Under the pieces are notes generated by a model, which saw only the letters and a list, made by a program, of their open reading frames with translations, made no database searches and had not been told where the DNA came from. The translations under genes were made by a program, and so were the position numbers. From Gammaproteobacteria bacterium (GTDB taxonomy: Bacteria > Pseudomonadota > Gammaproteobacteria > GCA-2400775), in assembly GCA_013151045.1 (NCBI GenBank), contig JAADIY010000028.1, positions 8,335 to 72,334 of the forward strand: DNA of 64,000 bases, given 5' to 3'. Below are positions 586 through 19,845 of this stretch, piece by piece; within the stretch, counting starts at the first letter, position 1; every line of letters begins with the position of its first letter.

Positions 586-2551
<1,966 letters not shown>

Positions 2552-2698
2552 CAAACCTATTTGATTAAATTAACGAGCAAACCTGTCCTAGCTCTCAAGT
2601 TATAAATCGCAATTGGTCTGTTAACCTTAGGTGATGAATCTCGCCTATCGTTTCGCTGATGATACTATATCAATATCTACGGAAGCCTTAAAACCATC

Positions 2699-3340
2699 AT
2701 GTATTTGATACCTAGCCGGTCTACACAACTCGCTCGCTTGTTTTCACTCTTGTCTCAAGGGGAGCGCATCGCTCATATCAGTGCAGCCCAACAAAGCCAA
2801 TTGATGACTCAACATGGCAATACCGCACATGCAAAATTTTTCAAACAACAATCGCGGCAAGAGCGTTTTCACGCTCGTGTTTTTAGTAGCGCAGCATTAT
2901 GGATAGGCAGCGGAAAAACTAACACTTGCTGCAAGCATCTTAAACTGTTTGAGAAAAGTATAGAAAATGCTTTGCATAGAAGAGACATGACAGAGTCGAT
3001 ATTAGCTGTACAAGTCATATTAGAAAGCATAGGTAAAATCATACTAGAAGGTATTGACGCGCGGATGGAACGACAGCGTTATGGTTTTAAAAAAATTAGA
3101 GCCATTATCCTTGCGCAAGAAGCTGAACACCATGAATTTGGTCAAAACCAATTGCTACACTTAACGCAAAACACTAATGCCAAACTATCCGACATGCAAC
3201 AGCAGTCTCAGCACTATCAAGAGTTAGCTAATAATATATTTGACGAACTCGCGCCACTTTTTGATCACCTTGGTGCCGATATCAATCGTTATAAATCTGA
3301 ATTAAATAACGAAATTCCCGATCACTTAAAAACACATTGA
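2699..3340 (+). CDS. hypothetical protein, possibly ferritin-like
   Basis: 213 aa ORF with good coding look; 9 bp upstream of a GT2 gene, so probably co-transcribed; no firm family assignment. Confidence 0.4.
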   Translation: MYLIPSRSTQLARLFSLLSQGERIAHISAAQQSQLMTQHGNTAHAKFFKQQSRQERFHARVFSSAALWIGSGKTNTCCKHLKLFEKSIENALHRRDMTESILAVQVILESIGKIILEGIDARMERQRYGFKKIRAIILAQEAEHHEFGQNQLLHLTQNTNAKLSDMQQQSQHYQELANNIFDELAPLFDHLGADINRYKSELNNEIPDHLKTH

Positions 3341-3349
3341 TTAACCAAT

Positions 3350-4045
3350 ATGATTAGCATAATCATCCCTGTACTTAACGAACAAAAAGCACTGCCACAA
3401 ACATTAACCTCTATACTTAAACAAAAACATCTGACCCAACGGCTAAACGAAATCATTATCGTCGACGGTGGCAGCGATGATGATAGCGTGCTTATCGCGC
3501 AAGAATTTTCTAACACTCTTCCTATAAAAATCATCTCCGCCAAACAAGGGCGCGCCTCACAAATGAACGCCGGCGCGAAAATATCGCCTGCACCATGGCT
3601 ACTATTTTTACACGCCGACACACAGTTACCACTTGATGGTCTTGAAAGACTTTATCAGAGCACAAAAAAAACTGGCGTATTGGCCGTTTGTTTTAAACAA
3701 ACGTTTTCAGGAAATCATTTAGGGCTAAAATTTATTTCTTGGTTGCATAACTTACGCTTTCATCAGACTAAAATTATCTACGGTGATCAAGCAATGATGG
3801 TTAAGCGTGATACTTTCTTTAAAGTGGCTGGGTTTCCAGAACAAAAGACTGAAGACGTTTTATTTAGCAGGAAACTATTCGCTCTCTGCACACCTATCAT
3901 GCTCAATGCTCATGTCGTTACCGATTCGCGAAAATTTGAGCAAATAGGTATGTGGCGTGCGCTAATGCATGTTATTGGTATCCAGTTTCAACTTCGGCAC
4001 GGCCACACAGTGACACATCAAAAATTTTTTCAAAACTACCGCTGA
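3350..4045 (+). CDS. family 2 glycosyltransferase
   Basis: 231 aa; N-terminal GT2 signature IIIPVLNE ... IIVDGGSDDDS ... DxD-like region. Confidence 0.7.
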   Translation: MISIIIPVLNEQKALPQTLTSILKQKHLTQRLNEIIIVDGGSDDDSVLIAQEFSNTLPIKIISAKQGRASQMNAGAKISPAPWLLFLHADTQLPLDGLERLYQSTKKTGVLAVCFKQTFSGNHLGLKFISWLHNLRFHQTKIIYGDQAMMVKRDTFFKVAGFPEQKTEDVLFSRKLFALCTPIMLNAHVVTDSRKFEQIGMWRALMHVIGIQFQLRHGHTVTHQKFFQNYR

Positions 4046-4216
4046 TTTCAATTTGCCTGCTTACAACTAACGTCGCTACGCCTTATCACCTGGTTTTCGT
4101 ATAAAATAATCTCAAAAAAATATTAAAAAGTCGCATCACTAAAACTGTGCGCTACGCTTACTGGGTGAATCAAAGGATATTTTGTTGCGCTCTTCCGCGG
4201 AAAAATAATTGTAAAA

Positions 4217-5425
4217 ATGAGATTTTGCACTATAAGCGTATTCGTACTATTGACGAATATCACCTTTGCGCAAAGTTATAACTACCCACCCAAAAATTCC
4301 TATTTTGCTACGGCTATTAGCACACCCAGTGAGCTAAAATATCCGGCCAAATGAAATTAGCTATCCCAATATCAAAAAACTCCAGCTCTATCCTGACAGA
4401 AAAGTCTCACCTATATTTTGGCATGGCAATAAACATCGTGTAGGCATGAACACCCAAGGTTGGAAAAAACCTGTGCCATTAATTTTTTTGCTATCTGGTA
4501 CCGGTTCAAACTTTGAATCAGACAAAACTCATTTTCTACGCAATCTCTTTTATCAATCAGGCTTTCATGTCATCAGCCTATCCTCGCCAACAAGCGATGA
4601 ATTTGTTACCTCTGCTTCTCGCTCATCGAGGCCTGGTTTTGTCAGCGATGATGCAGAAGCATCTATATCACTTTATGCAGCAGGCCTATGCCAGCGTTGA
4701 AAACAAAATTAGCGTCAGTGAGTTCTATATTGCCGGTTTCAGCATAGGTGCTATGCCTGCCGCCTTTCTCGACGAACTCGATTCTCGCCGACAGCAATTT
4801 TGCTTTAACAAAATAATGATGATTAATCCGCCTGTACGACTTTATGATTCTGCGCAGCGGATTAACCAGTTTTTGGAACGCAATCTTTCCAATGGAATCG
4901 AAAATGTAGGCGTTTTTGCTGAAAGCATTTTTAATCGCTACCCCCCTATTTTTAACCAAAGTTGGTGGCAACGAAATTGACAGTGAGTTTCTGTTTACGC
5001 TGGAGAAACGTTTATTACTGACCGCTGAAGAACTAGAAATTATCATTGGCTTAGCCTTTCGTCTGACGGCTAGCAGTATGACCTTCGCTTTGGATACAAT
5101 GAATCGCTCTGGTTATGTCGTTCACCCAGGTGAGTGATTAACAACTGGCAATACATTAACCGGCCACTTCAAACAATCTCTACATTGGGGCTTTACTGAT
5201 CACTTCGATCGCATATTGTCCCCCTATGTTCAGCAATCAGATCCCAGTATAACTATTGACTCACTTAAGCAACCACTCAGCTTGGAGTCGATTAAAAACT
5301 ATTTAGCCTCGACTAAAACCATTGCTGCCATGACAAACTCTGATGACTTCATTATCAATCAAGCAGATTTGAAGTTTCTTACCAATACGCTTAACGGTTT
5401 ACCCATATGGCGGGCATGGCGGTAA
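4217..5425 (+). pseudogene. alpha/beta-hydrolase-like lipoprotein/secreted protein, disrupted
   Basis: Signal-peptide ORF (MRFCTISVFVLLTNITFAQS) stops at 4352. The reading continues in other frames (4353-4700, 4513-4980, 4916-5137, 5138-5425) and includes a GFSIG nucleophile-elbow motif. There are at least 3 frame changes near short homopolymers (4349, about 4635, the CCCCCCC run at 4945) plus an in-frame TGA at 5135-5137. Confidence 0.5.
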
Positions 5426-5484
5426 TTTTACTTACCGAGATACGTTAAATATTTTTTCAAATTTTTTGGCGCTGAGCCTGCGCC

Positions 5485-6142
5485 ATGAGCGCTAACATCA
5501 CTGCTAAAGCTCGATCACTATTGACGCTGCCTACACTAGTCTCTTTTTTACTGCTACTGACGGCGTGTGCATCAACACCAAAAGCTGCTGAACTCGAAGG
5601 CCCCCGAATTAAGAAGCGAACAGTTTAGCGAAGAATTTAATTTCCTCAATAGCTATGATCCGCTGGAATCATTTAATCGCCACATCTATAAATTCAATGC
5701 TAAATTTGATGAATATATTTTTCTTCCTATTCTTCGTACCTACCACTCGTTAACACCGCGCTTTGTCCGCAGCGGTGCTAGAAACTTTTTTGCTAACCTC
5801 GGTGAAATACCGGTGCTACTCAACTCAGCCTTACAAATAAAACCACAAAGCACACTCGTTACCGCTAGCAGGTTCATTATTAATGTCACAATTGGTGTCG
5901 GCGGGTTGTGGGATCCGGCAAGCAAGCTCGGGCTTAAAAAGCGCAATGAAGACCTCGGCCAAATCTTAGGGCATTACGGCATCGGCCCCTACCGCGTCCT
6001 GCCAATACTCGGCCCATCAAGTCTACGAGATAGTACAGCCGATATTACCGACCGCTTAGTCCAATCAGACATCAATTTTATTGGATTAGAGGAAGCTCTC
6101 AACGACGAACCCCTGCTATTTGGCCTAGAAGCCGTTAATTAA
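5485..6142 (+). CDS. mlaA: MlaA/VacJ lipoprotein, apparent frameshift between signal peptide and mature domain
   Basis: Lipoprotein signal (MSANITAKARSLLTLPTLVSFLLLLTAC) in frame 1 ends at TAG 5626. The MlaA body (DPLESFNR ... GPYRVLPILGPSSLRD) runs in frame 2 from 5567. The frames can be joined at the CCCCC run at 5601-5605. Confidence 0.7.
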
Positions 6143-6175
6143 CGCTATCTCAATCCTTTTCGCTATGGCGAATTT

Positions 6176-6215
6176 AACTCGCCATTTGGATGGCGAGTTA
6201 GTTCGTTATTTTTAT
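6176..6215 (+). terminator. rho-independent terminator after mlaA
   Basis: Perfect 10-bp stem aactcgccat / atggcgagtt with loop ttgg, followed by a T-rich tract (ttatttttat). Confidence 0.55.
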
Positions 6216-6310
6216 CTAAAACAAAGAAAAATTCTTATAGATCAATAACTTAATAAGAATTATACAGCCGAAAAGTAATCTCTAAAAATATAAAATACAC
6301 CTCGATTGAC

Positions 6311-6339
6311 TTGTCTGAAGACCAAGAACAATCTATAAT
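6311..6339 (+). promoter_or_regulatory. sigma70-like promoter
   Basis: TTGTCT (6311-6316), 17-bp spacer, TATAAT (6334-6339); about 40 bp upstream of a small ORF with a GAGG RBS. Confidence 0.4.
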
Positions 6340-6381
6340 CAGCAGCTAGATTTTATTGGTACTAGTTCTGAGGAATTCACC

Positions 6382-6504
6382 ATGTACAATATATTTCCAT
6401 TAATTTTGATCCCGGTCTTCATCTTCTTTGGTTTGGCTGTGTTTTTAGCTGGCTCTATGTCTGAAGCCGCAATTAGTTCATCACTCGCTAATAAAGACAA
6501 ATAA
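6382..6504 (+). CDS. small single-TM membrane peptide (40 aa), below ORF-track cutoff
   Basis: GAGG RBS 8 nt upstream of the ATG; MYNIFPLILIPVFIFFGLAVFLAGSMSEAAISSSLANKDK; shares a PLIL(L)IP...F core with the 38-aa peptide at 16131-16247. Confidence 0.5.
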   Translation: MYNIFPLILIPVFIFFGLAVFLAGSMSEAAISSSLANKDK

Positions 6505-6554
6505 GTAATCCGCGCGGCAATTGACCTTAATTGCCCGTCTGAACTTTTTCTAGT

Positions 6555-6582
6555 GCTGATAACCTAAGTTTAGGTTATCAGC
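6555..6582. promoter_or_regulatory. perfect 13-bp palindrome (candidate operator)
   Basis: gctgataacctaa-gt-ttaggttatcagc, 18 bp upstream of the 6600 start codon; no T-run follows, so it is unlikely to be a terminator. Confidence 0.3.
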
Positions 6583-6599
6583 CTTAAGTATCCCACCTA

Positions 6600-7115
6600 A
6601 TGTCTTCTACTGATCATGATCGGCGCCTTATTGCTTTTCTATTAGGCTCAGCATTCTTTTTGTTTATTGGCACAACCCATGGTGTCGTCCAAGTATTGCC
6701 TGGCATACGTGACTGGTTAGTATCAGTTGGAACGCCGGTCAGCGGGCCCGGCCATATGATTGATCCACTTGCGCATGCGCATATCAACTTAGTCGGTGGC
6801 ATGGTGCTGATAAGCATGGCAATGACCTATTATCTATTCCCGCGTATTGCTGGCTGCCAAATTTGGTCTGGTAAATTAATTAGTCATTCTTTTTGGTGGA
6901 CTGCAGCTGGAGTTGTCGGCTTTTACACAACACTCATGGTATTTGGCATCACTGAAGGCCGCTTGATGCGTGCTGGTGAGCTAGAACAACAAGCCGCCGT
7001 GCATACCTACTACGGCATGACCATTAGCGTGCCAGCAACCATTATGGCCATTGGTTTTTGGATGTTTTTTATTAACATCTTCGCAACCGCACGTATTTAT
7101 TTTAAGAACCGCTAA
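6600..7115 (+). CDS. membrane protein resembling the C-terminal helices of heme-copper oxidase subunit I (CcoN-like fragment paralog)
   Basis: 171 aa, 4-5 TM; HAHINLVGG ... YYLFPR motif parallels the HAHLALLGF ... YYGL heme-ligand region of the full CcoN-like gene at 17939-19345; paralog at 21321-21860. Confidence 0.5.
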   Translation: MSSTDHDRRLIAFLLGSAFFLFIGTTHGVVQVLPGIRDWLVSVGTPVSGPGHMIDPLAHAHINLVGGMVLISMAMTYYLFPRIAGCQIWSGKLISHSFWWTAAGVVGFYTTLMVFGITEGRLMRAGELEQQAAVHTYYGMTISVPATIMAIGFWMFFINIFATARIYFKNR

Positions 7116-7128
7116 TCACTTCAATATC

Positions 7129-7647
7129 ATGACCTTAGAGTGTGGTTGTCCAGAACATTACCCAAATGAATGGGATGGGCAAGACATCGATCTTAGTGGG
7201 CACTGTGTTCACTCTCACTCTATACCCACGTTCTTACATATGCCGATTAACTATGCCGGTCATATGATGCGTCAGGCAGCTTCAGTTAATGCCTTAGAAC
7301 TAAAAGAACGCTGGCCAGGTTTTACCCTAACGAGGACGGGCATGCTTGGTGGAGAAATTTTACGTCTTATCGAAGACACAGATTCGCCTTCAAGACTAGT
7401 CAAATATCTACCTATCAACTTCGACGTTCGCTGTGTCATTCATCAAGGCACCATGAAGACATTACGTGACAGTGCACGTGTGGTACAACAAGCTTTATTT
7501 GATGAAGGCAAATTACCCAAAGAAATGTACCTGTGCCATCTTACTTGCCCACGCTGTGCAGAGGAAAGAGGGGGTGACAAAATCTTATTATTACGTCGTT
7601 GGCAAGCCAGTACAACTTTGCAGACGCGTCTAAATAATCGAAAATAA
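7129..7647 (+). CDS. Cys/His-rich hypothetical protein, possible metal binding
   Basis: About 172 aa from an internal ATG (the longer ORF overlaps the previous gene); CGCPEH, HCVHSH and CHLTCPRC motifs. Confidence 0.4.
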   Translation: MTLECGCPEHYPNEWDGQDIDLSGHCVHSHSIPTFLHMPINYAGHMMRQAASVNALELKERWPGFTLTRTGMLGGEILRLIEDTDSPSRLVKYLPINFDVRCVIHQGTMKTLRDSARVVQQALFDEGKLPKEMYLCHLTCPRCAEERGGDKILLLRRWQASTTLQTRLNNRK

Positions 7648-7648
7648 T

Positions 7649-8029
7649 TTATTGCTCTTGAGGCCAAGGCAATTCAAAGTGCAATACTGTCTCTTCTGCA
7701 CCCCGTTTAAGTTTGACATAAAGATACTCGTCGCCTTCTTCAATTTTTACTGCGCGACGAAACACACCGATATGACCATCTTGAACCGATTGCACCCATT
7801 TAGCCGACTCATTTGAACGCAGCCAAACAATTAGGCTCGAAGCAGGAGCACCTTTTTTCTTAGTCGATTTCAGCCAAATTTCATTAAAACCAACCTTAAC
7901 TGGATAAGGGTGCGTCTCTATCTTAAATATGATGTCATTCCATAACTGCGCGGGAACACGTGCCTGGTCCCCTTTACTGCATGCAACCATAGATAATGAT
8001 AATAAAAGAATAGCGATAAGCTGACGCAT
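7649..8029 (-). CDS. lipoprotein, hypothetical
   Basis: 126 aa; lipobox LSMVAC; last gene of the tightly packed minus-strand operon. Confidence 0.45.
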   Translation of the reverse strand: MRQLIAILLLSLSMVACSKGDQARVPAQLWNDIIFKIETHPYPVKVGFNEIWLKSTKKKGAPASSLIVWLRSNESAKWVQSVQDGHIGVFRRAVKIEEGDEYLYVKLKRGAEETVLHFELPWPQEQ

Positions 8030-8034
8030 ATTAC

Positions 8035-8346
8035 TTATTGTTCCTTTGAGTGTTTCATTAAATATTCGATCACTTCATTAATTTCTAGTTCGGTAAGAAC
8101 TGGCATCGCTTGTTGCGAGCGGTGCACTTGCATACGCAATACTACTGCACGCCAATCTTTAGCAGCTTTGGTTTCCGGCTTGGGTGCAACATGACAACTA
8201 CCACAATATTCCACTAATGCAATTTGATTTTCAGAACCTGATGAAAGAGCCCTGTTTTCAATAGTATCCTCTTCAACACTACAACTCGCGCTAAGCATCA
8301 ATACTATAAAGAAAACTAATCTATTTACCTTTGCTCTGGTCACCAT
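8035..8346 (-). CDS. mono-heme c-type cytochrome (lipoprotein)
   Basis: 103 aa; signal/lipobox LSASCS; single CGSCH heme-binding motif. Confidence 0.6.
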   Translation of the reverse strand: MVTRAKVNRLVFFIVLMLSASCSVEEDTIENRALSSGSENQIALVEYCGSCHVAPKPETKAAKDWRAVVLRMQVHRSQQAMPVLTELEINEVIEYLMKHSKEQ

Positions 8347-8791
8347 CGCTATCTTTGCTTACTTTTGAGCTCTCATCAGCATCAGTCTTACTAGAGTTCA
8401 TACCAAACATACTGATCATGGCATAGATAAAACCACCTGAGATAGCGATATATACCAAAGCTAATCCAAAACCCCAATTAAACCATTCTCTTTCGAAACC
8501 TTCACGATCACCCCAGAATGGAAAGCTTAAGAATATCGCGAACAACAATACAGCAATAATCACCGCTACAAACCATTTTGGTATAGCAACTTGAGACTCG
8601 GAAACCTTATCAACCATTTCCCAGTCTTCTAAACCACGCTTAGCCAAACGCTCCTCTTCTGAAGCGTAGCCATAAAAATCATCTGATTTCTTACCCCACT
8701 CTTGCTCAATCGACTCTAAAGGCACCTGTTTGCCCGCTGATTCATCTGGTTCAGCAGACTCGACATTGCTCTCTTGCTTATTAGTAACCAT
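8321..8791 (-). CDS. membrane protein, FixH-like by position (downstream of FixG-like gene)
   Basis: 156 aa with 2 TM and acidic termini; start overlaps the FixG-like stop. Confidence 0.4.
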   Translation of the reverse strand: MVTNKQESNVESAEPDESAGKQVPLESIEQEWGKKSDDFYGYASEEERLAKRGLEDWEMVDKVSESQVAIPKWFVAVIIAVLLFAIFLSFPFWGDREGFEREWFNWGFGLALVYIAISGGFIYAMISMFGMNSSKTDADESSKVSKDSDGDQSKGK

Positions 8792-10101
8792 TATTTTTCC
8801 ACCGCTACGTGATGAACCCGAAAACTACGTCGCCAGCCATCTGTTGATTCTACTTTAACTAAAAATGGATATAAACCAGGTTCTAAATCATGACTGATAT
8901 TGAATTTGACATATTTTCTCTCAGCCGTATCAAATGACGCTATCGTTGACTGAAAACGGTATGCATCTTCATCCAAGCCCTCTATAGAGACTGAAACCTC
9001 AGCGGGCTGATAAAGCTTATGTGAAAGCGAAACACGAAATTCATTTTCATTTCGCCCTTGCGCTGTCTGTGTATCATAAACCGAGAACCGGTAAGGCTCA
9101 TAGTTGACCATGCCCCAACTAAACATACCAACACCTAGTGTTACCAATGGAAGGATCCAAAAGAAACGTGACCGTAGCGCCATCATCGCATTGCGTGGTT
9201 GTTCTTTTTTAACCTGACGTTCTCCCATCGCAAAACTCAACAAACTAGCCCCCATTTTACGTGACCCGCGAATGCTCTCACATGCTGTAATGCATTCGCC
9301 ACAATTAATACATGCATCATAAGTCTGCGTCTTTCGTGGGTCTATCTCAACAAAGCAAGACGTCTGACAAAAATTACAGCGCGCGCACTCATCAGCAGCC
9401 GATGTATCGTGAACAATATGTAATGTCTCTTTGGTCTTAAATGAATGCTGCCATACTTTATATACGCACATAAAACGACAAAAAAAATGTCGTAGGTAGG
9501 CAACATCAACAAATATAATTAATACACAAATACCATAAATATAATATTCCGAACCGTTCATTCCATCAGCTGATTGAAATGTAACAAAATCAAAAAGAGT
9601 ATCTAGTGGATAAAAATAAAGCATCGGGATAAAACCAGCCACCATAGAGAAACCTAGCAATATCGCACCCAAACCCAACCAGTTTACGATTTTATTTTTA
9701 CCTGACGATACTTTCATTGGCGCACCATCAAGCATCACCTCTGAATTCTTACCAAGCAGACGCCGATGCCAATAGTTAGCCCATTCAGACATAGTATTTT
9801 GTGGGCAAGACCATCCGCAAAATGCCGTCCCTAAAGCTGAATACGTAATAATTAAAGCGCTCGACACCATCAACCAAAAACCCATGATAATGAAAAAGTC
9901 ACCAAAATCAATTTGCCGATCTAGCACCACAAAGGCACCCGCTAAGATATCGATACGGAAAAAGCCTAAAACAGGAATCAATATTGCCACCAACACAGTA
10001 ATTGCTTGCAACAGTCTCCTGCGTCGGTGTATTTTTTGTCCTGGGCTATTACTATTGACAGCAATAATTGGGATATCAGAAAGAGAAGATGACTGACTCA
10101 T
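8791..10101 (-). CDS. ccoG: FixG/CcoG-like membrane-bound 4Fe-4S ferredoxin (cbb3 oxidase assembly / cupric reductase family)
   Basis: 436 aa; N-terminal TM helices; two CxxCxxCxxxC motifs (CARCNFCQTSC, CINCGECITAC); C-terminal Ig-like periplasmic domain. Confidence 0.75.
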   Translation of the reverse strand: MSQSSSLSDIPIIAVNSNSPGQKIHRRRRLLQAITVLVAILIPVLGFFRIDILAGAFVVLDRQIDFGDFFIIMGFWLMVSSALIITYSALGTAFCGWSCPQNTMSEWANYWHRRLLGKNSEVMLDGAPMKVSSGKNKIVNWLGLGAILLGFSMVAGFIPMLYFYPLDTLFDFVTFQSADGMNGSEYYIYGICVLIIFVDVAYLRHFFCRFMCVYKVWQHSFKTKETLHIVHDTSAADECARCNFCQTSCFVEIDPRKTQTYDACINCGECITACESIRGSRKMGASLLSFAMGERQVKKEQPRNAMMALRSRFFWILPLVTLGVGMFSWGMVNYEPYRFSVYDTQTAQGRNENEFRVSLSHKLYQPAEVSVSIEGLDEDAYRFQSTIASFDTAERKYVKFNISHDLEPGLYPFLVKVESTDGWRRSFRVHHVAVEK

Positions 10102-12737
10102 AACTGTTGCACTCGCTCATTAAGCAATAAATTGGTAATAGGTCGCGCCTGATAAAGTGGACTAACACTTTTTAACTTGGCAATATATTTTTTAATAGCC
10201 TCATCATCATTATTTTTCTGAGCGATACCTAACAGAGCTTCTAAGGTTAATAGGTGATCAGGCTTAATCAATAAAATTTTCTCTAAGCTAGCTTGTTTAA
10301 CTTTTGGCGTAATACCCACACGAGACAAAGATGCCAACATCTTGTCTGCAAGAGTTCCGCTAATCCATTGATCCTTCGGGTTGCCTCTGTAAGCAAATTG
10401 TAGGAAACGCTGCGCTCGGGCCTCATCACCACTTAGTTGAGCCAACCAACTACGCATCGATGCATCGGCAGCAATATAGGCTCGCTCAAAAAGCTCTGCT
10501 TCATTCTTATTCACCTGCAAATGTTGAGCTGCGAGTTCTGCGCTAGGCCTTTGTTTGATTAACCACTCTAGCACTTCTTGAAAATTTATTTCCCCAGCGT
10601 AGCGTACGCGAGGGAGGTGATATTCTATCTGTGGCCGCCATTCATCTTCAATTAATTTGGCGGGGCTTTTAATACGACCAATATAACGACCTAACCAAGT
10701 CCATACACCCTCACCTCCTGTTTGTTTCGCATTAGATTCTAGCACTTTGATATTTTTCAATAGTCGACCAGCATCAACGGTAACACCAGGGCTACCCACC
10801 ATCGCCAACCTAAAACCATCAACAAATAATGCGGCACCAGGGAAGCTATGCTCAAACGTGTTCAATACAATTTGCAAAGCAGTTAAATCAAATTGATTAA
10901 GAGCCAACCATTGCACATAAAGACCATCTTGATTTAAGCGTGATTTAACACGATCAAATTGTTGTTGCGATAACAAACGACTACGACCAACTAAATCGGG
11001 ATGGAATAGATCCCCGACAATGACATCGTAATATTCATTAGAACGCATTAAATAACGGCGCGCGTCATCATTAATAATAGTAATCTTATTACTAATATCT
11101 CTATTGCTTTGAGCAAACCATTTATCAGCAGACTCTATTGCGCCTTTTGATATTTCAACAGCAGTAATATCCACATCAAAGTCTAAGGCTGCTGATGCTG
11201 AAATTCCAGTGCCCAAACCAAGAAACAATACTTTTTCTGCATCGGGGTTTAATAACAAGGGTAAGCGTGCTTGGTTCTTCTGAGCGACAACTGCCGTGGG
11301 CTCAGTTGAAGCGTCCATACGTTGCAGGTCTGATAACAGTAAACGCTGCCCCCGCTGCGTTTCGACAACATGGGTAGTCGCTATTGCATCTTCGTGTAGC
11401 GACAATACAGATTGGCTATTGGCATGAGCGACAGGAAGCAGCTCTGTAACCGTTGGCAGGTCCGGCAAGAAAAAAAGAGTGCTTGCGAGTATGGGTGATA
11501 CTAGCCAAAATAACCTCGCTTTACACCAGCGCATACCGGCAACAAATAAGATGATTGCTGCTATTAATATAGTTAGCGGGGTACCGACTGTAGGCATTAA
11601 TACAAATCCTGCCAACAAAGCACCAAAGCCAGCACCAATGGCATTAACACCGTAGAACCAAGCGCCTGCACTACTGGGGTCTTCATAACCTCGAACGAGT
11701 AAAGGCAACCATGCGCCTAAGCAAAAGGTCACGACAACCGTCACCATAGCTAAAGCAACACCCTGCTTTATTAGCGCGTTGATTAAAGAGCTGTACTCAA
11801 TTGTTTCGGCCCATGCCGATACGGATGCCAAGCTAATCAAAGAAATTATCGCTGCTAACGCTGCCGTGACAGGCAACAGATTCAACCAGAGTCGTCTCGC
11901 CCCCCATTGTGATAAAACACTGCCACATGCTGTGCCGGCCAGGAATATCGCTATTATTATAGCTAGTACATATTCGGTACGAAGTAAGGCCATACCGTAG
12001 AGTCTAGCCCATGCGACTTGTAGCATCAGTGCGGCTGCACCGATCAAGGCATAGCTTAGTAAATCTAAGACAGCCGGTTTTACTGAAAAGTTCCTACTAA
12101 CACTCTGCTTTAGGGGTGATTTTATGGCGATCAAAAAAAATAAAAGGCCTGTTATCGCACCTAATAGTGCAATGGTATATAAACTATTCGCCCAACCTAA
12201 TACTGGCAACAACAATACCGGCACTAACGCACCAAATGCTGCGCCCAAGGTATTGGCCGCATAGAGATGGGAAACCGTAAGCTGTGTGTCTTTTATCGCG
12301 GCAAGAACAAGTGGAAAGCCTAAGCCCATCGCCGTCGCTGGCAATAACATAAAAAATAGTGCCGCAACGAGCTCAATGCTATGCCATGCTGACAACTGGA
12401 TATCACTAGTCGCCGTGATTAAAAATTCTGACCAATATTGATTTATCGAAGGTAGCCCTACAGCATAAAGCGCTACCAATATTTCAATTAAGGCTAGGAC
12501 CATCAAAGGTCTCGCTAGGTGTAATAAATACCGTTTACCAAGAATACTACCTAGGCCTAGACCAAACATGAAAGCGCTAACTGTAATGACGACGCCAAAG
12601 TTACTGACGCCAAACTGTAGACTTAACATGCGCATCCATAGCACTTCGTAGGCTAGTGCTACGAGGCCAGAAATACCGTAGAGGATGAGCAATAGAAAGA
12701 TGAGAGGTGTTTTATCTGACCTTATCATGGTCATCAA
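10098..12737 (-). CDS. fused MFS-type membrane domain / spermidine-synthase-like (SAM-dependent aminopropyltransferase fold) / TPR protein
   Basis: 879 aa; about 12 TM N-terminal; central domain with GLGTGISA and VIVGDLFHPD spermidine-synthase motifs; C-terminal TPR-like repeats. Confidence 0.7.
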   Translation of the reverse strand: MMTMIRSDKTPLIFLLLILYGISGLVALAYEVLWMRMLSLQFGVSNFGVVITVSAFMFGLGLGSILGKRYLLHLARPLMVLALIEILVALYAVGLPSINQYWSEFLITATSDIQLSAWHSIELVAALFFMLLPATAMGLGFPLVLAAIKDTQLTVSHLYAANTLGAAFGALVPVLLLPVLGWANSLYTIALLGAITGLLFFLIAIKSPLKQSVSRNFSVKPAVLDLLSYALIGAAALMLQVAWARLYGMALLRTEYVLAIIIAIFLAGTACGSVLSQWGARRLWLNLLPVTAALAAIISLISLASVSAWAETIEYSSLINALIKQGVALAMVTVVVTFCLGAWLPLLVRGYEDPSSAGAWFYGVNAIGAGFGALLAGFVLMPTVGTPLTILIAAIILFVAGMRWCKARLFWLVSPILASTLFFLPDLPTVTELLPVAHANSQSVLSLHEDAIATTHVVETQRGQRLLLSDLQRMDASTEPTAVVAQKNQARLPLLLNPDAEKVLFLGLGTGISASAALDFDVDITAVEISKGAIESADKWFAQSNRDISNKITIINDDARRYLMRSNEYYDVIVGDLFHPDLVGRSRLLSQQQFDRVKSRLNQDGLYVQWLALNQFDLTALQIVLNTFEHSFPGAALFVDGFRLAMVGSPGVTVDAGRLLKNIKVLESNAKQTGGEGVWTWLGRYIGRIKSPAKLIEDEWRPQIEYHLPRVRYAGEINFQEVLEWLIKQRPSAELAAQHLQVNKNEAELFERAYIAADASMRSWLAQLSGDEARAQRFLQFAYRGNPKDQWISGTLADKMLASLSRVGITPKVKQASLEKILLIKPDHLLTLEALLGIAQKNNDDEAIKKYIAKLKSVSPLYQARPITNLLLNERVQQL

Positions 12738-12743
12738 CCATGC

Positions 12744-13106
12744 CTAAAACGGAAAAAACCAGACTACCGCAGCTACGCCATGAGCTAGCGCTAAAGTAAC
12801 TGTTAAACCCGCACTAATCATATGCCACATAAAAACTTGCTTACCATAAATCGCCATACTGATACCTAATATGGCAGTGGTCAGCACTAACACTAATAAC
12901 GTACTTCCCATAATAAAGAGAATGGTATGCTTTTCTTCTGTACTAATCGCGCGCGGTCCAAGATCAATTTCTTTATCCGTAAATTCAGTGATCACATCCA
13001 TAGCATTATCAGCTGACGCCGCGGTATCCGCTGATGCAAAAACAATATTACTCAACAGCAATGTGACAAGAACAATCGCAACAAGATAATAAGAGCGCAA
13101 TAACAT
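12744..13106 (-). CDS. small membrane protein
   Basis: 120 aa, 3 TM; operon-packed. Confidence 0.4.
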   Translation of the reverse strand: MLLRSYYLVAIVLVTLLLSNIVFASADTAASADNAMDVITEFTDKEIDLGPRAISTEEKHTILFIMGSTLLVLVLTTAILGISMAIYGKQVFMWHMISAGLTVTLALAHGVAAVVWFFPF

Positions 13107-13111
13107 AATAT

Positions 13112-13351
13112 TTATTCTGATTCTGATTCAGCTACTGTTTTATTTTTTTGCTTATAACGCTGCAGCGCAAAATACCAATACAGTATAGCCATGACAACAA
13201 ACGGCGCCAGCACCAAAAAACAAAGGAAAATAAAAATTGCCCACGGCGTTTCTATAGTGACATGAAAAAAACTGTAGCTATCAAGACCCGCTTGTGCGGA
13301 TAACGGCAACAGCAATAAAAGATATACATAAATAGTTCTAAAATAAAACAT
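13112..13351 (-). CDS. small membrane protein
   Basis: 79 aa, 2 TM; start 3 bp from the upstream stop. Confidence 0.4.
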   Translation of the reverse strand: MFYFRTIYVYLLLLLPLSAQAGLDSYSFFHVTIETPWAIFIFLCFLVLAPFVVMAILYWYFALQRYKQKNKTVAESESE

Positions 13352-13353
13352 AA

Positions 13354-14424
13354 CTAACCTTTTTCATCGGCAATATTTTTACTACAACGAAACCCGTAAA
13401 AATCAGACGCATAATGTGGAAAGGAATAATTTCGGTGATAAGCGGACGTTGCAAACGGATCGCTTTTAAATGATCCACCGCGCATCACAACATAAGTTGC
13501 TTCAACTTCAACTAAGTCGACCACTTTCAAAGATTTATCTAATGTTGTTGTCGCTCTACCTACTTTCGGTATAAACAACTCAGCCTGCGCATCAGCACCT
13601 TGATATGCTACAAACTCATCTGCTGTCCATTCACTAACATTACCTGCCATATCATGAACACCATATGGGCTTTTACCCGTCGGATAACGAGTGACATCGG
13701 TTGCCGAACCAACACTATAGTAGGTATTAAGATTGTCAGCGTCCATCAAATTACCCCATGGCCAACGACGACCATCTTCACCCCGTGCAGCTTTTTCCCA
13801 TTCCGCCTCTCGCGGTAAGCGTGCATCGACCCACTGACAATATCCTGCTGCGTCATACCAGGAAACCATGGTAACCGGTGCCAATAAATCCCCCGGCCTC
13901 ATTCGCCCACCACTCCAGTGTAATGGCGGTCTATGTTTAGTATCCGCAACGAAACGCGCATATTCTGCATTAGTTACCGGATACTTTCTAATCTCATAGG
14001 CGTCAGTGCTAGCTCTATGTGCTGGCTTGTCTTGATCATTCGCTAGATGGCGATCAGTGCCCATTATAAACTCGCCTGCTGGAATTTCTATCCAAGCACC
14101 GAGCTCTGACCACATATCGGGGGTTAATAACTCTTCCGCCTGCTCAATACTATAAGTAGTTTGAACAGTTTTTAATGCCTCGTTATGTTGATGCCGAATA
14201 ATATCCTCACCCGCAGCTCGAATTCGAGACTCCATTTCAGAGATATCGTAAGTTGCACTCGCACGCATTTGATCGATACGACTGCCACCTAGCTGGACAA
14301 GATGATAAAACGCGAAAACAATTGCAGCGGCAGCACACGTCACCAGTGTTGCTGCTAAAAAAACCTTTCGCTTCGCGCGCTCCATGCCATCAATTTGAGG
14401 AGTTTGTGTAAACTTTTTGGCCAT
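13354..14424 (-). CDS. FGE-sulfatase family protein (formylglycine-generating-enzyme / SUMF1 / NirV-like), membrane anchored
   Basis: 356 aa; N-terminal TM; FGE motifs (YEIRKYPVTNAEYARF, GYCQWVDARLPREAEWEKAARG, RGGSF, HRNYSFP). Confidence 0.7.
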   Translation of the reverse strand: MAKKFTQTPQIDGMERAKRKVFLAATLVTCAAAAIVFAFYHLVQLGGSRIDQMRASATYDISEMESRIRAAGEDIIRHQHNEALKTVQTTYSIEQAEELLTPDMWSELGAWIEIPAGEFIMGTDRHLANDQDKPAHRASTDAYEIRKYPVTNAEYARFVADTKHRPPLHWSGGRMRPGDLLAPVTMVSWYDAAGYCQWVDARLPREAEWEKAARGEDGRRWPWGNLMDADNLNTYYSVGSATDVTRYPTGKSPYGVHDMAGNVSEWTADEFVAYQGADAQAELFIPKVGRATTTLDKSLKVVDLVEVEATYVVMRGGSFKSDPFATSAYHRNYSFPHYASDFYGFRCSKNIADEKG

Positions 14425-14429
14425 ACAAT

Positions 14430-14903
14430 CTAGCGGCCCAATTTAGACGGTGCTTTTTCGTCCTTGTGACCAGTGTGACGTGGCATACGACCGTAAGTTT
14501 TTTTCACCCACAATTCACCTAGTATTCCACCGACAGCTGATGCTTCAATTGCGACAATAATGATGAAACCCATATAACCTATCGGCAGCAAACGCATATC
14601 TTCTGGCATCACACTTACCCCAGTAGAGGTGCTAAAATATTGAAACAGATAAACCATTAGCGCAGGAAAATAACAAAGAACCTTGCCACCGAGACCATAA
14701 ATTAACGATACGGTAACACCGCCAATAAATGGCGTTAACACCAAACCGATAAATAAACTTGGGTGAAAATAAGAAGTTAAATCTTGAAACAACTCAAGAC
14801 GCACGCCAAACAGCAGATTGAGTGTATACATTACAACTGCACCAGATAAGATCGCAAATAAGGCCCACTTTAGCGCCTCTAGCTTATTGCTGATCTTTAT
14901 CAT
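14430..14903 (-). CDS. polytopic membrane protein, hypothetical
   Basis: 157 aa, 4 TM. Confidence 0.45.
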   Translation of the reverse strand: MIKISNKLEALKWALFAILSGAVVMYTLNLLFGVRLELFQDLTSYFHPSLFIGLVLTPFIGGVTVSLIYGLGGKVLCYFPALMVYLFQYFSTSTGVSVMPEDMRLLPIGYMGFIIIVAIEASAVGGILGELWVKKTYGRMPRHTGHKDEKAPSKLGR

Positions 14904-15393
14904 CTGATTCAGGCCACTTATTACCGGTTAATTTTTTATATTCCAGTTTCTTAAGGTCTTCTAAATACCAATCTTCCACTTTTAGGCTAGCCATATACGC
15001 AGCTAGGGTCCTTCTATCTTCTTCAGGGAGATGCGCGTAAGACGGCATACTCCATTCCGCTTTCAAACGCCCTTTCAATATCTGCTGAGGGTCTTCAGAA
15101 GAAAAATAATCAAATAACCAATCTTCTGACCGTAATGATCCAATTCCATCTAATATTGGAGCCGGAACCGTAGCCATAATATTTTTAATTGTCCAAAGCG
15201 AATGACACTTCTTACAATTTTGTTCTTTGTAAATGACATCACTCGCTATAGTCAGCTCTTTTGTAGCAGTACTATAAAATGGAATCGACTTCTCTTGATC
15301 TGGTGTCTGAGAAAAACCTATATAATTACGCACCATTAGGCCAACTATGAGAAGCCCCATACCACCTAATATCAACTTTTCCCCGGTACGCAT
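14884..15393 (-). CDS. mono-heme c-type cytochrome, membrane anchored
   Basis: 169 aa; N-terminal TM; CKKCH motif. Confidence 0.6.
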   Translation of the reverse strand: MRTGEKLILGGMGLLIVGLMVRNYIGFSQTPDQEKSIPFYSTATKELTIASDVIYKEQNCKKCHSLWTIKNIMATVPAPILDGIGSLRSEDWLFDYFSSEDPQQILKGRLKAEWSMPSYAHLPEEDRRTLAAYMASLKVEDWYLEDLKKLEYKKLTGNKWPESDDKDQQ

Positions 15394-15405
15394 GCAGCTC
15401 TACCC

Positions 15406-15690: not shown

Positions 15691-15699
15691 CGTACTCTC

Positions 15700-16002: not shown

Positions 16003-16060
16003 TCTGGTCTACGAACACTAACACAGATATAGACCATGCTAGGTAGGGAAAGGTTTAACA

Positions 16061-16104
16061 TTTTTGAGAAAAAATGCCGCTCAAGAGAGCGGCATTTTAT
16101 TTCC
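16061..16104. terminator. bidirectional rho-independent terminator splitting the cluster into two operons
   Basis: 12-bp perfect stem aaaatgccgctc / gagcggcatttt with loop aaga; A-run on one side and T-run on the other. Confidence 0.55.
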
Positions 16105-16130
16105 ATAAATACGCCGTATGGCGATTTACT

Positions 16131-16247: not shown

Positions 16248-16272
16248 TTTATTTCACCTATATTGGATCAGC

Positions 16273-16917
16273 TTAGTGGCCAATTGAATGGTCTGGTTCC
16301 CAATCTGAAGGGGGCAAACGCTTCACTGTAATCATAACAGCAATACAAAAGTAAATAACGTAGAAAATATCGATGGTATAGCCAATATCCCACGAAGGTT
16401 GAACCCGAATTTTCACACCATCATCACGGTATTCGCCTTCAAAGTTAGCTAACGCTACATCTTTACCAACAATCGTGTAGTAGTCCATATCAGCATTTTC
16501 GCGCTGTAATTCAACAATTTGATCTTTGACAAGACGCAAATCATTCATTGTTAAAGGATGACGATCCTGATGGCCTGCCCAATCAGAGCCTTGAGACTTA
16601 ACTGTGTCAACAATATAAGCCATCTTATCTTCATCGTTATCAAGTGCTGCAACTTCTGGAGTATCCATCAGAGCAATATACTCTTCATAGATAATAGCCA
16701 TAGGGCGTTGACCCCACAAAGGTGCTGTTACCAAAAACGCTGTAATAATTGTCAGCATCAACAACCACACCACTGCCTGTGGCAAGCGATTATTGTCTTC
16801 CATAATGCCACCCAGACTCTCGTGCTCCCAAACATGTCTTGCATGCTCGTTCTGATCGCTGGTTGCTAACGTATATAGTGGTTTATCGTATTTCCAAGCC
16901 ATTTGGCTATCCTCCAA
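16273..16917 (-). CDS. 2-TM membrane protein with acidic periplasmic/cytoplasmic domain, hypothetical (occupies the CcoP position but has no heme motif)
   Basis: 214 aa. Confidence 0.45.
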   Translation of the reverse strand: MEDSQMAWKYDKPLYTLATSDQNEHARHVWEHESLGGIMEDNNRLPQAVVWLLMLTIITAFLVTAPLWGQRPMAIIYEEYIALMDTPEVAALDNDEDKMAYIVDTVKSQGSDWAGHQDRHPLTMNDLRLVKDQIVELQRENADMDYYTIVGKDVALANFEGEYRDDGVKIRVQPSWDIGYTIDIFYVIYFCIAVMITVKRLPPSDWEPDHSIGH

Positions 16918-16928
16918 GGAAAACTAAA

Positions 16929-17877
16929 TTACTTCAAACTCAAGACATAATCCATCAAGTAACGGATTTCGCTGTTAGGCGCATAATCAGGTACCAATGG
17001 TGGATAAAGACTCTTGCCTGCAGCGTACTCTTTATAATCAGCACGCCATTGATCAAAGTCAATCTCGTTACCGTTAGCATCAACTTCGCCCCATAAATAA
17101 TCGAAGCGAGGCATAATTGAATGCGGCTGAACTAATCTTGGATTGAAAAAATGCATCATCATCCATTCTTTCGATGAGTTACGCGAACCAACATGCAATA
17201 AATCAGGAGCCTTACGATCAGAACCAAACGCGGTTGGAGCCTCACCATTAAAATCACCTAGACGCGGCGGCAAACCAAAATATTGCCAATCCTGAGTTTG
17301 CTCAGGAAGCAGCGTATGACACCTCGCAGCCTTCACGTACGAACATCGTTTTACCGCTACCAACGTGACGCTTATCAGTATCCGCGGCTGAGGCTAATAC
17401 TGCCGCAGCAGTCCAATCACGAGTCGCGCTAGCATTTTCAATATAGGGGAAGGTTTCACCTTCGTAATCACCACGCGACACCAAGAATACTGCGCCTTCA
17501 TCTGAAGTCGCAACACCAACTTGACCATCATCAGCACTTAATGCTGCGACCTCAGTACCAAGGATACCCGGATTACGAACCGCACTAGGAAACGGGGTTC
17601 CCGGCACATAGACATAAGCGTCAACCGGATCAATATCAGCACCTGTGACAGGATCTTTCTTGATAGTAACAGTTAAAGGCTTACCTTTCCCTTGTAGGAA
17701 CGGATCCTCGTAGGAAAAACCTGAGTTATGGCCATAAGACAAACCTTTAACCAAACCTGTTTCAGTCACGCCAACACTATAAATAGTTAAGCTAGGCATA
17801 TATAAGGTGATCATCATTGAACCACCTAATGCGATACCAAACATGCGGGTACCAATTTTATACTCTCTAAAAGCCAT
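16929..17877 (-). CDS. CcoO/FixO-like (NorC-like) mono-heme subunit with long N-terminal insertion; frame break inside the heme-binding motif
   Basis: Upstream frame ends ...TMFVREGC EVSYAAS*; the downstream frame continues ARCHTLLPEQ ... APDLLHVGSRNSSKEWMMMHFFNPRLVQPHSIMPRFDYLW, colinear with the CcoO stretches REGCYNCHSQMIRPF and [38 protein letters not shown]. Only 4 nt lie between the two Cys codons. Confidence 0.55.
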
Positions 17878-17938: not shown

Positions 17939-19345
17939 TTAACGTTCGTATGCGATCTCATGTGGCAAACGACCTACTGGCACTGGCGTACCTGCACGTG
18001 CTGTCATCCACATGTTATAGAGCCAAACAACGTTACCAGTAAATACCATCGTACCGCCGACCCAACGAGCAATCATATAAGGATGCTCTGCAATAACCAC
18101 GTCGATATAAGGCACTTCGTAGATCTTCGCCGCACCCTGAATCAAACCAGCAATAGTGATTGAGATCCAGTAGGTTGCAAAACCAATCAATAAGAACCAG
18201 AAGTGGAAATTAGCTAGCGCCAATGAGTACAGCTTACGACGCAAGATCGTTTGTAGGCCGTAGTACACAGCAGCAGCTTCTAGGAAAGTAGAGAAACCTA
18301 GCAAGGCCAAATGAGCATGAGCCACAATCCAACCAGTACCATGTACATACCAGTTAATGGCACGCGTTTGCTGGAAACCACCCTGCATATTTAGCGGGAT
18401 AGCTAACATAACACCCGTAATGGTAAAACGAATTTCGATGTTATCAACAAAGTAATGCCATTTACCGGTCATGGTAAGGAGCAGGTTAGATACAAACGCA
18501 ATCGCTGGCACCAAAATCAACACACCCTCAACAGAGGCGAAAGATTTTAGCCACTCAGGCAATGGTGATGACATCAAATGATGCGCTGCTGGTGTTGAGT
18601 AAAATACAACCACTGACCAGAAATGCAAGTGACCAATACGATGAGAGTACAGTGGATTACCGGTAATCTTCGGCACCGTATAATAGGCAATCGCCGCTGC
18701 CACCGGGGTAATCCACAAGCCAAGAATGTTATGGGCGTGCCACCAGGTCAAATAGGCTTCTGTCAAACCGGTCAGAGAAAAGTACTCCGGCAGGTTACCG
18801 ACCAGCACCACAATCATCAACATGAATATGGCCGAACCAAAAAACCAGTTGGTGGTGTAAATACCCTGCGTCTTACGATGAACGATGGTCATCCAGACAT
18901 TGATCCCCAATGGCAACAGCACTGCGAACAGGATAATCAGATCAATAGGCCATGGAAAGTCAGTGTACTCACGTCCGGAAGTAATACCGGCCCACATCAG
19001 GCACAAGGCAACAGAGAGACCAGCGTTCCAGTTAAAACAGGTCCAGATACCAAGCTTTTCAGACCAAAGTTTGGTATTACCCAAAGCAGGCGTGATGTAC
19101 ATAAAGGCCATGGCAAAGGCCATTGAGATCCAGCCGAAGATAACGGCCATGACGTGAACTTGGCGCATATGACCAAAGGCAAACATATAGCTACCGGTTA
19201 CAAAATCCGGGAAAGCGAGTTTTGCAGCATTAAAAGAACCCAAGGCAGTCCCAATAATAAACCAGATGATGGACGAAAACCCAAAAAAGACAGCCGCTGA
19301 ACCTGCGGGTATATCTTCGTTCTTCGCAAAAAGATACTTGAACAT
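17939..19345 (-). CDS. cbb3-type (C-family) heme-copper oxidase subunit I, CcoN-like, divergent
   Basis: 468 aa, 12 TM; conserved His ligand pattern (FGHMRQVH; WWHAHNILG; PAAHHLM; VAHAHLALLG) matches CcoN, not the NorB HLWVEG pattern. Confidence 0.8.
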   Translation of the reverse strand: MFKYLFAKNEDIPAGSAAVFFGFSSIIWFIIGTALGSFNAAKLAFPDFVTGSYMFAFGHMRQVHVMAVIFGWISMAFAMAFMYITPALGNTKLWSEKLGIWTCFNWNAGLSVALCLMWAGITSGREYTDFPWPIDLIILFAVLLPLGINVWMTIVHRKTQGIYTTNWFFGSAIFMLMIVVLVGNLPEYFSLTGLTEAYLTWWHAHNILGLWITPVAAAIAYYTVPKITGNPLYSHRIGHLHFWSVVVFYSTPAAHHLMSSPLPEWLKSFASVEGVLILVPAIAFVSNLLLTMTGKWHYFVDNIEIRFTITGVMLAIPLNMQGGFQQTRAINWYVHGTGWIVAHAHLALLGFSTFLEAAAVYYGLQTILRRKLYSLALANFHFWFLLIGFATYWISITIAGLIQGAAKIYEVPYIDVVIAEHPYMIARWVGGTMVFTGNVVWLYNMWMTARAGTPVPVGRLPHEIAYER

Positions 19346-19537: not shown

Positions 19538-19557
19538 CGTTATCTCCCCTCTTTCAT

Positions 19558-19845
19558 TTAGGCTGCTGCGCGAGCTTGAGCTTCTAACGCACCGTGGCGT
19601 GAAGCAGAAACCATCATGATAGCCATGAATGCAACACCAAACACGAGCATACACCACGTCATGAAACCCATAAAGGTAGTGGGGTCATAGACTTGACCAC
19701 CCCAACCGCCCCAATCGTCAAAACGACCGCGGCCCAGCGCACACATCAATGCAGCGCCAAATACGCTACCGTTGCCCATTCCTGTAGTAACACCAGCAAC
19801 CAAGCTCACCCAAAAAGTCTTTGAATATGGCAACAAATTGTCCAT
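19558..19845 (-). CDS. small 2-TM membrane protein
   Basis: 95 aa. Confidence 0.4.
   Translation of the reverse strand: MDNLLPYSKTFWVSLVAGVTTGMGNGSVFGAALMCALGRGRFDDWGGWGGQVYDPTTFMGFMTWCMLVFGVAFMAIMMVSASRHGALEAQARAAA

Follow-up and report, generated by a model that had tools for sequence, protein, structure and literature searches.

Three small open reading frames (ORFs) located in a 64,000-nucleotide stretch of contig JAADIY010000028.1 (hereafter the window), which originated from a gammaproteobacterial metagenome-assembled genome (MAG) with GXP21_ locus tags, probably represent three genuine and mutually unrelated families of single-pass membrane peptides of 30-45 amino acids (aa) that are dedicated components, likely small subunits, of a gene supercluster encoding a divergent heme-copper oxidase. 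The three ORFs are hereafter called sORF1, sORF2 and sORF3 (Table 1). That they are genes appears close to certain from sequence analysis because their conservation is syntenic, their reading frames are under purifying selection and their Shine-Dalgarno (SD) motifs are conserved. A preliminary description of the window had proposed the three ORFs as small membrane peptides akin to respiratory oxidase subunits; all of them exist at the coordinates and lengths that it gave, and the third proved to lie on the minus strand.

Conservation at syntenic positions, which the preliminary description had suggested as a check, was found for all three ORFs. It was surveyed in 80 genome loci around homologues of a 171-aa protein encoded downstream of sORF1 and, for sORF2 and sORF3, in 80 metagenome loci around CcoN-like genes (CcoN-like products 82-88% identical, neighbouring genes ~50-75%), with orthologues of the latter two collected by iterated local searches with family hidden Markov models (HMMs). 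By these iterated models, sORF3 was found in 74 of the 74 loci that cover its position and sORF2 in all 50 loci that cover its own. Both persist in Gamma-, Beta- and Zetaproteobacteria, and in one zetaproteobacterial and one betaproteobacterial contig they are called as genes, with family-HMM E-values from 1e-12 to 1e-21. A hydrophobic ORF of the sORF1 type ends ~90-200 nucleotides (nt) upstream of the 171-aa gene in 16 of the 80 genome loci, and sORF1 is also present upstream of this gene in L161-L164. Such genes upstream of the 171-aa gene were found in Gammaproteobacteria, and sORF1 orthologues go down to 30-50% peptide identity. Two distant members of 36-37 aa retain the order sORF1, 171-aa gene and PF20603 gene, followed by the convergent gene array up to the FGE-sulfatase gene. 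When the sORF1 profile was searched against 5.8 billion proteins, 133 protein clusters of 33-66 aa were recovered, none of which carried a Pfam domain or any name beyond 'hypothetical protein'.

Selection on the reading frames and signals for initiation gave the same picture. Pooled ratios of nonsynonymous to synonymous polymorphism (pN/pS) were 0.32 for sORF1, 0.36 for sORF2 and 0.34 for sORF3 in frame, as against 1.0-2.3 in the shifted frames. In all three ORFs diversity was highest at the third codon position, lower at the first and lowest at the second, and the other frames contained stop codons. SD motifs were seen before all three ORFs in the window, and an SD core 5-16 nt before the start was present in 82% (sORF1), 91% (sORF2) and 67% (sORF3) of the orthologues, compared with 6-7% of random positions; the ribosome-binding sites noted in the preliminary description are therefore both present and conserved. 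Two sORF1 orthologues use GTG as the start codon instead of ATG.

Each family contains one strongly hydrophobic stretch with a mean hydropathy above 2. Lysine and arginine residues flanking the helix are absent on the N-terminal side and average 1.8-3.1 on the C-terminal side in all three families. From this positive-inside bias all three are predicted to be single helices with an N-out/C-in topology, and the earlier characterization of the peptides as small single-helix membrane proteins is upheld by the hydropathy and flank-charge predictions. The invariant P and FFG of sORF1 and the LAFSSM of sORF3 are located inside the hydrophobic helix, and the C-terminal tails are the least conserved parts of these two families. 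A number of sORF3 orthologues (L106, L110, L114, L118, L128, L132, L141 and others) have short His-rich cytoplasmic tails with a mean of 1.2 His per tail, for example ...SGDHH, ...DNHH and ...QHNSH; the window copy has a final PGKH only. Metal binding by these tails is conceivable.

The preliminary description had further linked sORF1 and sORF2 through a shared core, xPLIL(L)IPxxxxF, in their helices. The letters are present, but the homology that they were taken to signify was not borne out. The longest string common to the two peptides is the four residues PLIL; a common 4-mer arises in 6-12% of shuffles (probability 0.06-0.12), and the sORF1 helix has a 4-mer in common with 14 further small ORFs of the window. 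BLASTP of sORF1 against sORF2 gave no alignment. Profile comparison with hhalign returned probabilities of 0.6% (sORF1/sORF2), 0.9% and 1.3% for the three family pairs, the first of these without aligning the PLIL motif, and the iterated family HMMs of the three sORFs never matched one another. In the sORF1 family the second proline is invariant (both prolines nearly so), and in the sORF2 family it is present in 4 of 28 sequences. The spacing of the prolines inside the helix differs by one residue between sORF1 and sORF2, and the conserved sORF2 motifs MIExDN(G/P)P and PFIYSFFVD are absent from sORF1. These results argue against a reading of sORF1 and sORF2 as paralogues with a PLIL(L)IP helix core, belonging to one family of oxidase peptides, even though both peptides have PLIL followed by IP and are the sole matches to P[LIV]{3,5}P among the 655 ORFs of 25-100 aa in the window. 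Such a relationship is very improbable and can be regarded as already refuted at the level of sequence comparison. By the same comparisons, sORF1, sORF2 and sORF3 are best described as three unrelated families, and the shared motif as a coincidence of hydrophobic composition. The size of the small-ORF set, the very short length of the three ORFs and the observation that promoter- and terminator-like matches over the whole region are no commoner than in shuffled sequence would also fit chance ORFs in A+T-rich intergenic DNA that correspond to no gene; conservation, selection and signal evidence are all against this, and the chance of it, already refuted by the comparative data, is negligible.

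The peptides had also been described as unannotated and as likely to be missed by gene callers. Public gene-call collections in fact already include sORF1 and sORF2 as exact peptides, together with many sORF3 orthologues, nameless or as 'hypothetical', so that 'unannotated' does not hold for them in the strict sense. The second statement stands for sORF3, the exact 30-aa sequence of which is not in the protein collection and the orthologue of which was left uncalled in a relative with 99% identity. Small-ORF annotation by automatic pipelines misses such genes inconsistently.

The genomic setting of the peptides is a conserved supercluster of ~17 kb that encodes a divergent cbb3-type oxidase together with accessory proteins in chemolithotrophic, iron- and sulfur-oxidizing Gamma-, Beta- and Zetaproteobacteria. 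Most of it is one long array on the minus strand that runs from ~20768 down to 7649. The array starts with a 150-aa gene and a 95-aa gene, followed by sORF3, the CcoN-like gene, the CcoO-like gene, the gene for a 209-aa protein, sORF2 and a terminator. After the terminator come a 100-aa gene, a 94-aa gene, a cytochrome c, a 157-aa gene and an FGE-sulfatase-family protein, then a 79-aa and a 120-aa gene, a fused MFS/spermidine-synthase-like protein (879 aa) and a CcoG-like ferredoxin, and finally a 156-aa gene, a di-heme cytochrome and a lipoprotein. A module on the plus strand, composed of sORF1, the 171-aa truncated CcoN and the PF20603 protein, converges on this array. Upstream, the interval 20772-23381 contains the genes for a second truncated CcoN (179 aa), a thioredoxin-like protein and c-type cytochromes. 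sORF3 starts 20 nt downstream of the 95-aa two-helix gene and is placed 99 nt upstream of the 468-aa CcoN-like gene, in agreement with the earlier statement that a 30-aa ORF immediately precedes that gene.

Table 1 Coordinates of the small ORFs, neighbouring genes and transcription signals discussed in the text (positions in the window).
Feature	Position	Strand	Description
sORF1	6382-6504	+	40 aa, MYNIFPLILIPVFIFFGLAVFLAGSMSEAAISSSLANKDK; predicted single-pass membrane peptide; family core W/F-P-x-I/L-L-V/I-P-I-x-I-F-F-G-L
sORF2	16131-16247	-	38 aa, MIELDNPPLILLIPILVVFVAPYIYSFMIDNFDKSDKQ; predicted single-pass membrane peptide; family pattern M-I-E/D-x-D-N-G/P-P ... P-F-I-Y-S-F-F-V/I-D-x-x-D-K
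sORF3	19445-19537	-	30 aa, MITIVATVFCIVLAFSSMWFAWYLMMPGKH; predicted single-pass membrane peptide; family core L-A-F-S-S-M-W/L-F/L-x-W-Y-L/I-L-x-P
Sigma-70-type promoter of sORF1	6311..6339	+	-35 TTGTCT, 17-nt spacer, -10 TATAAT; consensus scan
Two stable hairpins	6512-6538 and 6552-6584	+	Between sORF1 and the 171-aa gene; minimum free energy -30.8 kcal/mol, z -6.1
Stand-alone 'truncated CcoN'	6600..7115	+	171 aa, four helices; Pfam COX1 positions 309-430
PF20603 ('Bact_hydrolase') protein	7129..7647	+	Pfam match; start inferred from orthologues
79-aa ORF	13112-13351	-	Signal-peptide-like N-terminus and one helix; between the FGE-sulfatase and 120-aa genes
94-aa gene	15406-15690	-	FixS-like weak signal (E 0.0013); not an sORF
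Intrinsic terminator	16069..16098	-	Just after sORF2; hairpin and U-run, fold -30.2 kcal/mol, z -6.06
209-aa membrane-anchored protein	16273..16902	-	Weak FixP_N and ccoP N-terminal matches; syntenic in 66/80 loci
CcoO-like mono-heme subunit	16929..17877	-	~180-aa N-terminal extension; FixO match
CcoN-like catalytic subunit	17939..19345	-	COX1 1.6e-73 (Pfam)
95-aa two-helix membrane protein	19558..19845	-	First gene of the structural operon; syntenic in 73/80 loci
73-aa two-helix ORF	20078-20299	+	Between the 150-aa and 95-aa genes, opposite strand
Second truncated CcoN	21321-21860	-	179 aa, ~30% identical to its 171-aa paralogue

The best solved relative of the CcoN-like protein is P. stutzeri CcoN (1.8e-64). 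The alignment of the two is free of gaps around WWxxHN, Y-x5-HH and HxH, and the six His ligands and the helix-VII cross-link Tyr are aligned. On the ccoN equivalog model TIGR00780 the protein scored 225 bits, far below the cut-off of 583. These comparisons indicate a divergent C-family (cbb3-type) heme-copper oxidase. An assignment of the host enzyme to the 'N2O reductase' type of heme-copper oxidase or to the NOR family (PMC11214002) was considered and rejected, as the closest solved structure is a cbb3 CcoN and the cross-link Tyr is present. The CcoN-like homologues (P0306-P0424) are 77-88% identical across gamma-, beta- and zetaproteobacterial MAGs, with operon neighbours at 35-60%, and the DNA of a relative with a 99% identical CcoN differs at many synonymous sites.

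In the window, the CcoO-like gene is broken into a pair of overlapping frames by the loss of 2 nt within its heme c motif CWWCH, between 17325 and 17326 (TGC--GAGGTGTCAT in the window, TGCTGGTGGTGTCAC in an intact relative). It is an intact single frame of 300-318 aa with CWWCH kept in L082, L165, L166 and L167, the last of which has a CcoN that is 99% identical. The deletion is either an assembly error of the MAG or a recent loss that produced a pseudogene. The 209-aa protein has a CcoP-type N-terminal anchor only, without a cytochrome c domain, and is not a canonical di-heme CcoP. The 95-aa gene is called in L165-L167.

At least two more conserved small membrane ORFs, unmentioned in the preliminary description, are present in the cluster. 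The 79-aa ORF, which is 39% identical to the 82-aa gene that takes its place in L166 and whose slot is filled by genes of 75-85 aa in L161 and L163-L165, probably corresponds to the 'STMD' gene of the Tenderiales preprint discussed below. The 73-aa ORF matches a called 63-aa gene in the corresponding place of L165 (49% identity over 37 aa), and L167 has a gene of 74 aa there. In the betaproteobacterial contig L166 the oxidase operon with sORF3 and sORF2 (9556-13196) is located directly after the genes for alternative complex III (ACIII; Act, 1960-9347), a layout that suggests an electron path from ACIII to the oxidase.

Transcription signals were identified around sORF1 and sORF2. The sigma70-like promoter that had been attributed to sORF1 was confirmed as the top plus-strand promoter match in the region, and in seven relatives the -35 (CTTGTyT), the -10 (TATAAT) and the SD motif are invariant against a variable spacer and flanks. 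In the window clade, the stretch that separates sORF1 from the 171-aa gene (6505-6599) has two hairpins, the second of which (12-14 bp) is preserved in shape, though not in sequence, in L006. At the same place, distant loci of class A have a canonical, GC-rich intrinsic terminator with an A-tract and a U-tract, AAAGCCCGG...CCGGGCTTTTTT, in 13 out of 13 cases (L008, L009, L020, L031, L036, L041, L043, L047, L070, L075, L161, L163 and L164). The gap between sORF1 and the 171-aa gene is 85-217 nt long and contains hairpin or terminator structures in every class-A locus examined. These terminator-like structures had been overlooked. Flanked by a promoter and by terminators or hairpins, sORF1 therefore amounts essentially to a promoter-ORF-terminator unit of its own, and the genes downstream of it probably depend on read-through. 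The spacer itself may act as an attenuator or as an RNA-stability element. The possibility that sORF1 and the 171-aa gene are the two parts of a split gene was rejected, as they are in different frames and have separate SD motifs.

The strong terminator that had been noted after sORF2 was likewise corroborated. A similar element follows sORF2 in 40 of the 51 orthologous loci, compared with 53 of 400 random segments (13%). A scan for the terminator consensus missed it, apparently because the stem extends into the U-run, and folding confirmed it. sORF2 thus closes the structural operon.

The module that contains sORF1 is ~10 kb from the oxidase genes, a separateness that the preliminary description had not taken into account. 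The 171-aa truncated CcoN has 586 homologues of ~170 aa, and GPGHMIDPLAHAH is invariant in an alignment of 28 of these homologues. The PF20603 gene adjoins the 171-aa gene in 71 of the 80 loci and in L161-L164. Both truncated CcoN paralogues cover approximately CcoN helices IX-XII, with the HxH heme-ligand motif retained, and they could bind heme without a CuB site. In nine loci (L007, L014, L030, L032, L052, L056, L058, L060 and L069) the 171-aa gene is preceded at ~150-270 nt by a different helix ORF of 25-30 aa, for example MNNVGFLAVLFGIALLIFVVLPSMTI, which is conserved within this group of loci and is unlike sORF1. The iterated sORF1 HMM also drew in an ORF of ~42 aa (MVEE/MIEQ-IG-x-N-ILVPI...DVLRRR) at L007:3285-3422(-), L015:4078-4206(+), L033:7614-7742(+) and in L042, L044, L048, L056, L058 and others. 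Its coding strand is opposite to that of the flanking genes (879-aa and CcoG-like), and the gap in which it lies is absent from the window; it may be a displaced relative of sORF1.

Taken together, the position of sORF3 and sORF2 within the structural operon (95 aa - sORF3 - CcoN - CcoO - 209 aa - sORF2 - terminator) suggests that these two peptides are most likely small stabilizing or assembly subunits of the divergent oxidase, and they would fill the niche of CcoQ or CcoM in an enzyme without CcoQ and without a heme-bearing CcoP. sORF1 would most likely pair, as a fifth helix, with the four-helix 171-aa protein or with the oxidase itself, and read-through of the terminator after sORF1 would set a lower level of expression for the downstream genes. 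The chances of a subunit role for the peptides are estimated as roughly even to moderately favourable, because the argument for it comes from gene context and not from homology or experiment. Several observations weigh against the proposal that the three families are dedicated small subunits of this oxidase. The peptides have no similarity to any known oxidase subunit by sequence or profile, and the functional part of the proposal, translation and physical association included, is all drawn from gene context. A terminator after sORF1 in most lineages means that the truncated CcoN gene need not be transcribed together with it. Upstream of the 171-aa gene, about half of the loci have another tiny ORF or none that was detected. 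The deletion in the CcoO-like gene means that the enzyme may be non-functional in this MAG, unless the assembly is wrong. A more far-reaching version, in which sORF2 and sORF3 with the 95-aa and 209-aa proteins would be obligatory subunits of an 'alternative complex IV' that replace CcoQ and CcoP, and sORF1 with the truncated CcoN would form a five-helix HxH heme module, is put forward tentatively and is rather doubtful. The enzyme in question would be one used by iron-, sulfur- and electrode-oxidizing bacteria and, if this were true, a split, modular form of heme-copper oxidase that has not been described biochemically.

The main rival to a subunit role is that sORF1 and sORF3 are regulatory leader ORFs, the translation or membrane insertion of which would control termination or translation downstream, with a peptide that has no function of its own. 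Both ORFs do lie just upstream of larger genes (those for the truncated CcoN and for CcoN, respectively), and the terminators after sORF1 in the distant loci, like the two hairpins of the window clade, form an attenuator-like layout. However, the amino acid sequence and not just the number of codons is under purifying selection, with the invariant residues in the helix, and conservation is lowest in the C-terminal tails, where an arrest motif would be expected. No antiterminator structure that would pair alternatively with the ORF was seen. A leader role is impossible for sORF2, which is itself followed by a terminator as the final gene of its operon, and in some lineages a possibly related sORF1-like gene is found elsewhere on the opposite strand. 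A leader function for sORF1 and sORF3 is accordingly considered unlikely.

The cluster itself is already known from comparative genomics. A preprint on the Tenderiales (bioRxiv 10.1101/2022.05.06.490989, Fig. 2B) reported a conserved region of 26-30 genes, containing 'cbb3-1 and cbb3-2', in Ca. Tenderia electrophaga and iron oxidizers, and called it 'a sort of alternative complex IV'. Compared by the gene order listed in the preprint, window positions 6600-23381 match this region gene for gene: di-heme and mono-heme cytochromes, a truncated CcoN, a thioredoxin, hypotheticals and a small gene called by RAST only directly before CcoN; then CcoN, CcoO, hypotheticals, a mono-heme cytochrome and an FGE-sulfatase-type gene (there a 'kinase'); and finally the small 'STMD' protein, CcoG and a second truncated CcoN. 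At least the position of sORF3 thus appears to have been noticed in the preprint. The preprint differs in that it treats orthogroups only, with no analysis of the coding status, topology or families of the small ORFs, and lists no gene ahead of its second truncated CcoN, which is the position of sORF1. In a metatranscriptome study, 'complex IV-2' of Ca. Tenderia electrophaga was reported to rank with the most highly expressed gene sets when the organism grew on an electrode; described as homologous, it is a candidate counterpart of this cluster among the terminal-oxidase-like sets of that organism.

The comparison with CcoQ-, CcoS- and CydX-type peptides that the preliminary description had called for gave no profile match. 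Even at E = 10, Pfam searches with the three window peptides and 68 family members (15+28+25) returned no FixQ, FixS or CydX match, and NCBIfam gave no oxidase-related match for the sORFs; the scans yielded only scattered weak transmembrane matches (OppC_N, PsbI, holins). Profile searches of the three family alignments against all chains in the PDB, including CcoM of 5DJQ (M17/F20/F24), returned no oxidase chain. The suggestion that the peptides are small oxidase subunits therefore gains from their strictly conserved synteny with a heme-copper oxidase cluster and loses from the lack of homology to CcoQ, CcoS, CydX or CcoM, and membership in those families is not borne out. It is quite unlikely that the sORFs are divergent members of CcoQ/FixQ, CcoS/FixS, CydX or CcoM. 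In favour of such membership are the equal size class, the single helix and the predicted N-out/C-in topology, which is that of CcoQ and CcoS (PMC12648545), the location of sORF2 beside a CcoP-anchor-like gene, given that CcoQ stabilizes the complex through the CcoP membrane anchor (PMC12648545), and the fact that small oxidase subunits such as CydX, CioY and CydS often lack mutual sequence similarity (PMC12648545). Against it, besides the failed profile searches, are a gene order unlike ccoNOQP and the FixS signal in another gene, the reported near-exclusive occurrence of CcoM in Pseudomonas, where it is encoded outside the operon (PMC4742706), and the lack of bd oxidase genes (cydAB) in the cluster.

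Among the known systems, CcoQ (FixQ, PF05545) resembles the sORFs as the single N-out/C-in helix of an oxidase operon, with sORF2 placed right after the CcoP-anchor-like gene. sORF2 differs in having no FixQ similarity and a length of 34-47 aa in its family as against ~58 for CcoQ; ccoQ lies between ccoO and ccoP, whereas the order here is 95aa-sORF3-N-O-(P-anchor-like)-sORF2 and the P-like partner has no heme domains. From CcoS (FixS, PF03597) the sORFs differ in lacking a FixS match, the weak FixS signal being in the separate 94-aa gene. CcoM of P. stutzeri Cbb3-1 (PDB 5DJQ) is a 36-aa helix beside CcoN helices VIII, IX and XI, the loss of which lowers thermal stability and not activity (PMC4742706). 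Like the sORFs it is a single helix of ~36 aa that annotation overlooked until the structure was solved, and its contact helices on CcoN overlap the portion that the 171-aa truncated CcoN after sORF1 has kept; it has no similarity to the sORFs and is encoded far from its operon, whereas the sORFs are strictly syntenic across three proteobacterial classes. Small single-helix subunits such as CydX, CcoQ and CcoM have repeatedly been found to matter for oxidase stability or activity and are routinely missed by annotation. The three families described here are invariant companions of a highly conserved and biochemically uncharacterized cbb3-like oxidase, and the peptides would be needed in the construct when this oxidase is purified, modelled or heterologously expressed. 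The family alignments now allow the three peptides to be annotated, which extends a known theme and overturns nothing. A further comparison is with CydX, CydH and CioY. These belong to the bd superfamily and not to the heme-copper oxidases, cydAB is absent here and the sORFs have no PF08173 match; the likeness is that of single-helix peptides of 30-40 aa, encoded beside oxidase genes and needed for stability or activity, in which unrelated sequences fill the same structural role in different lineages.

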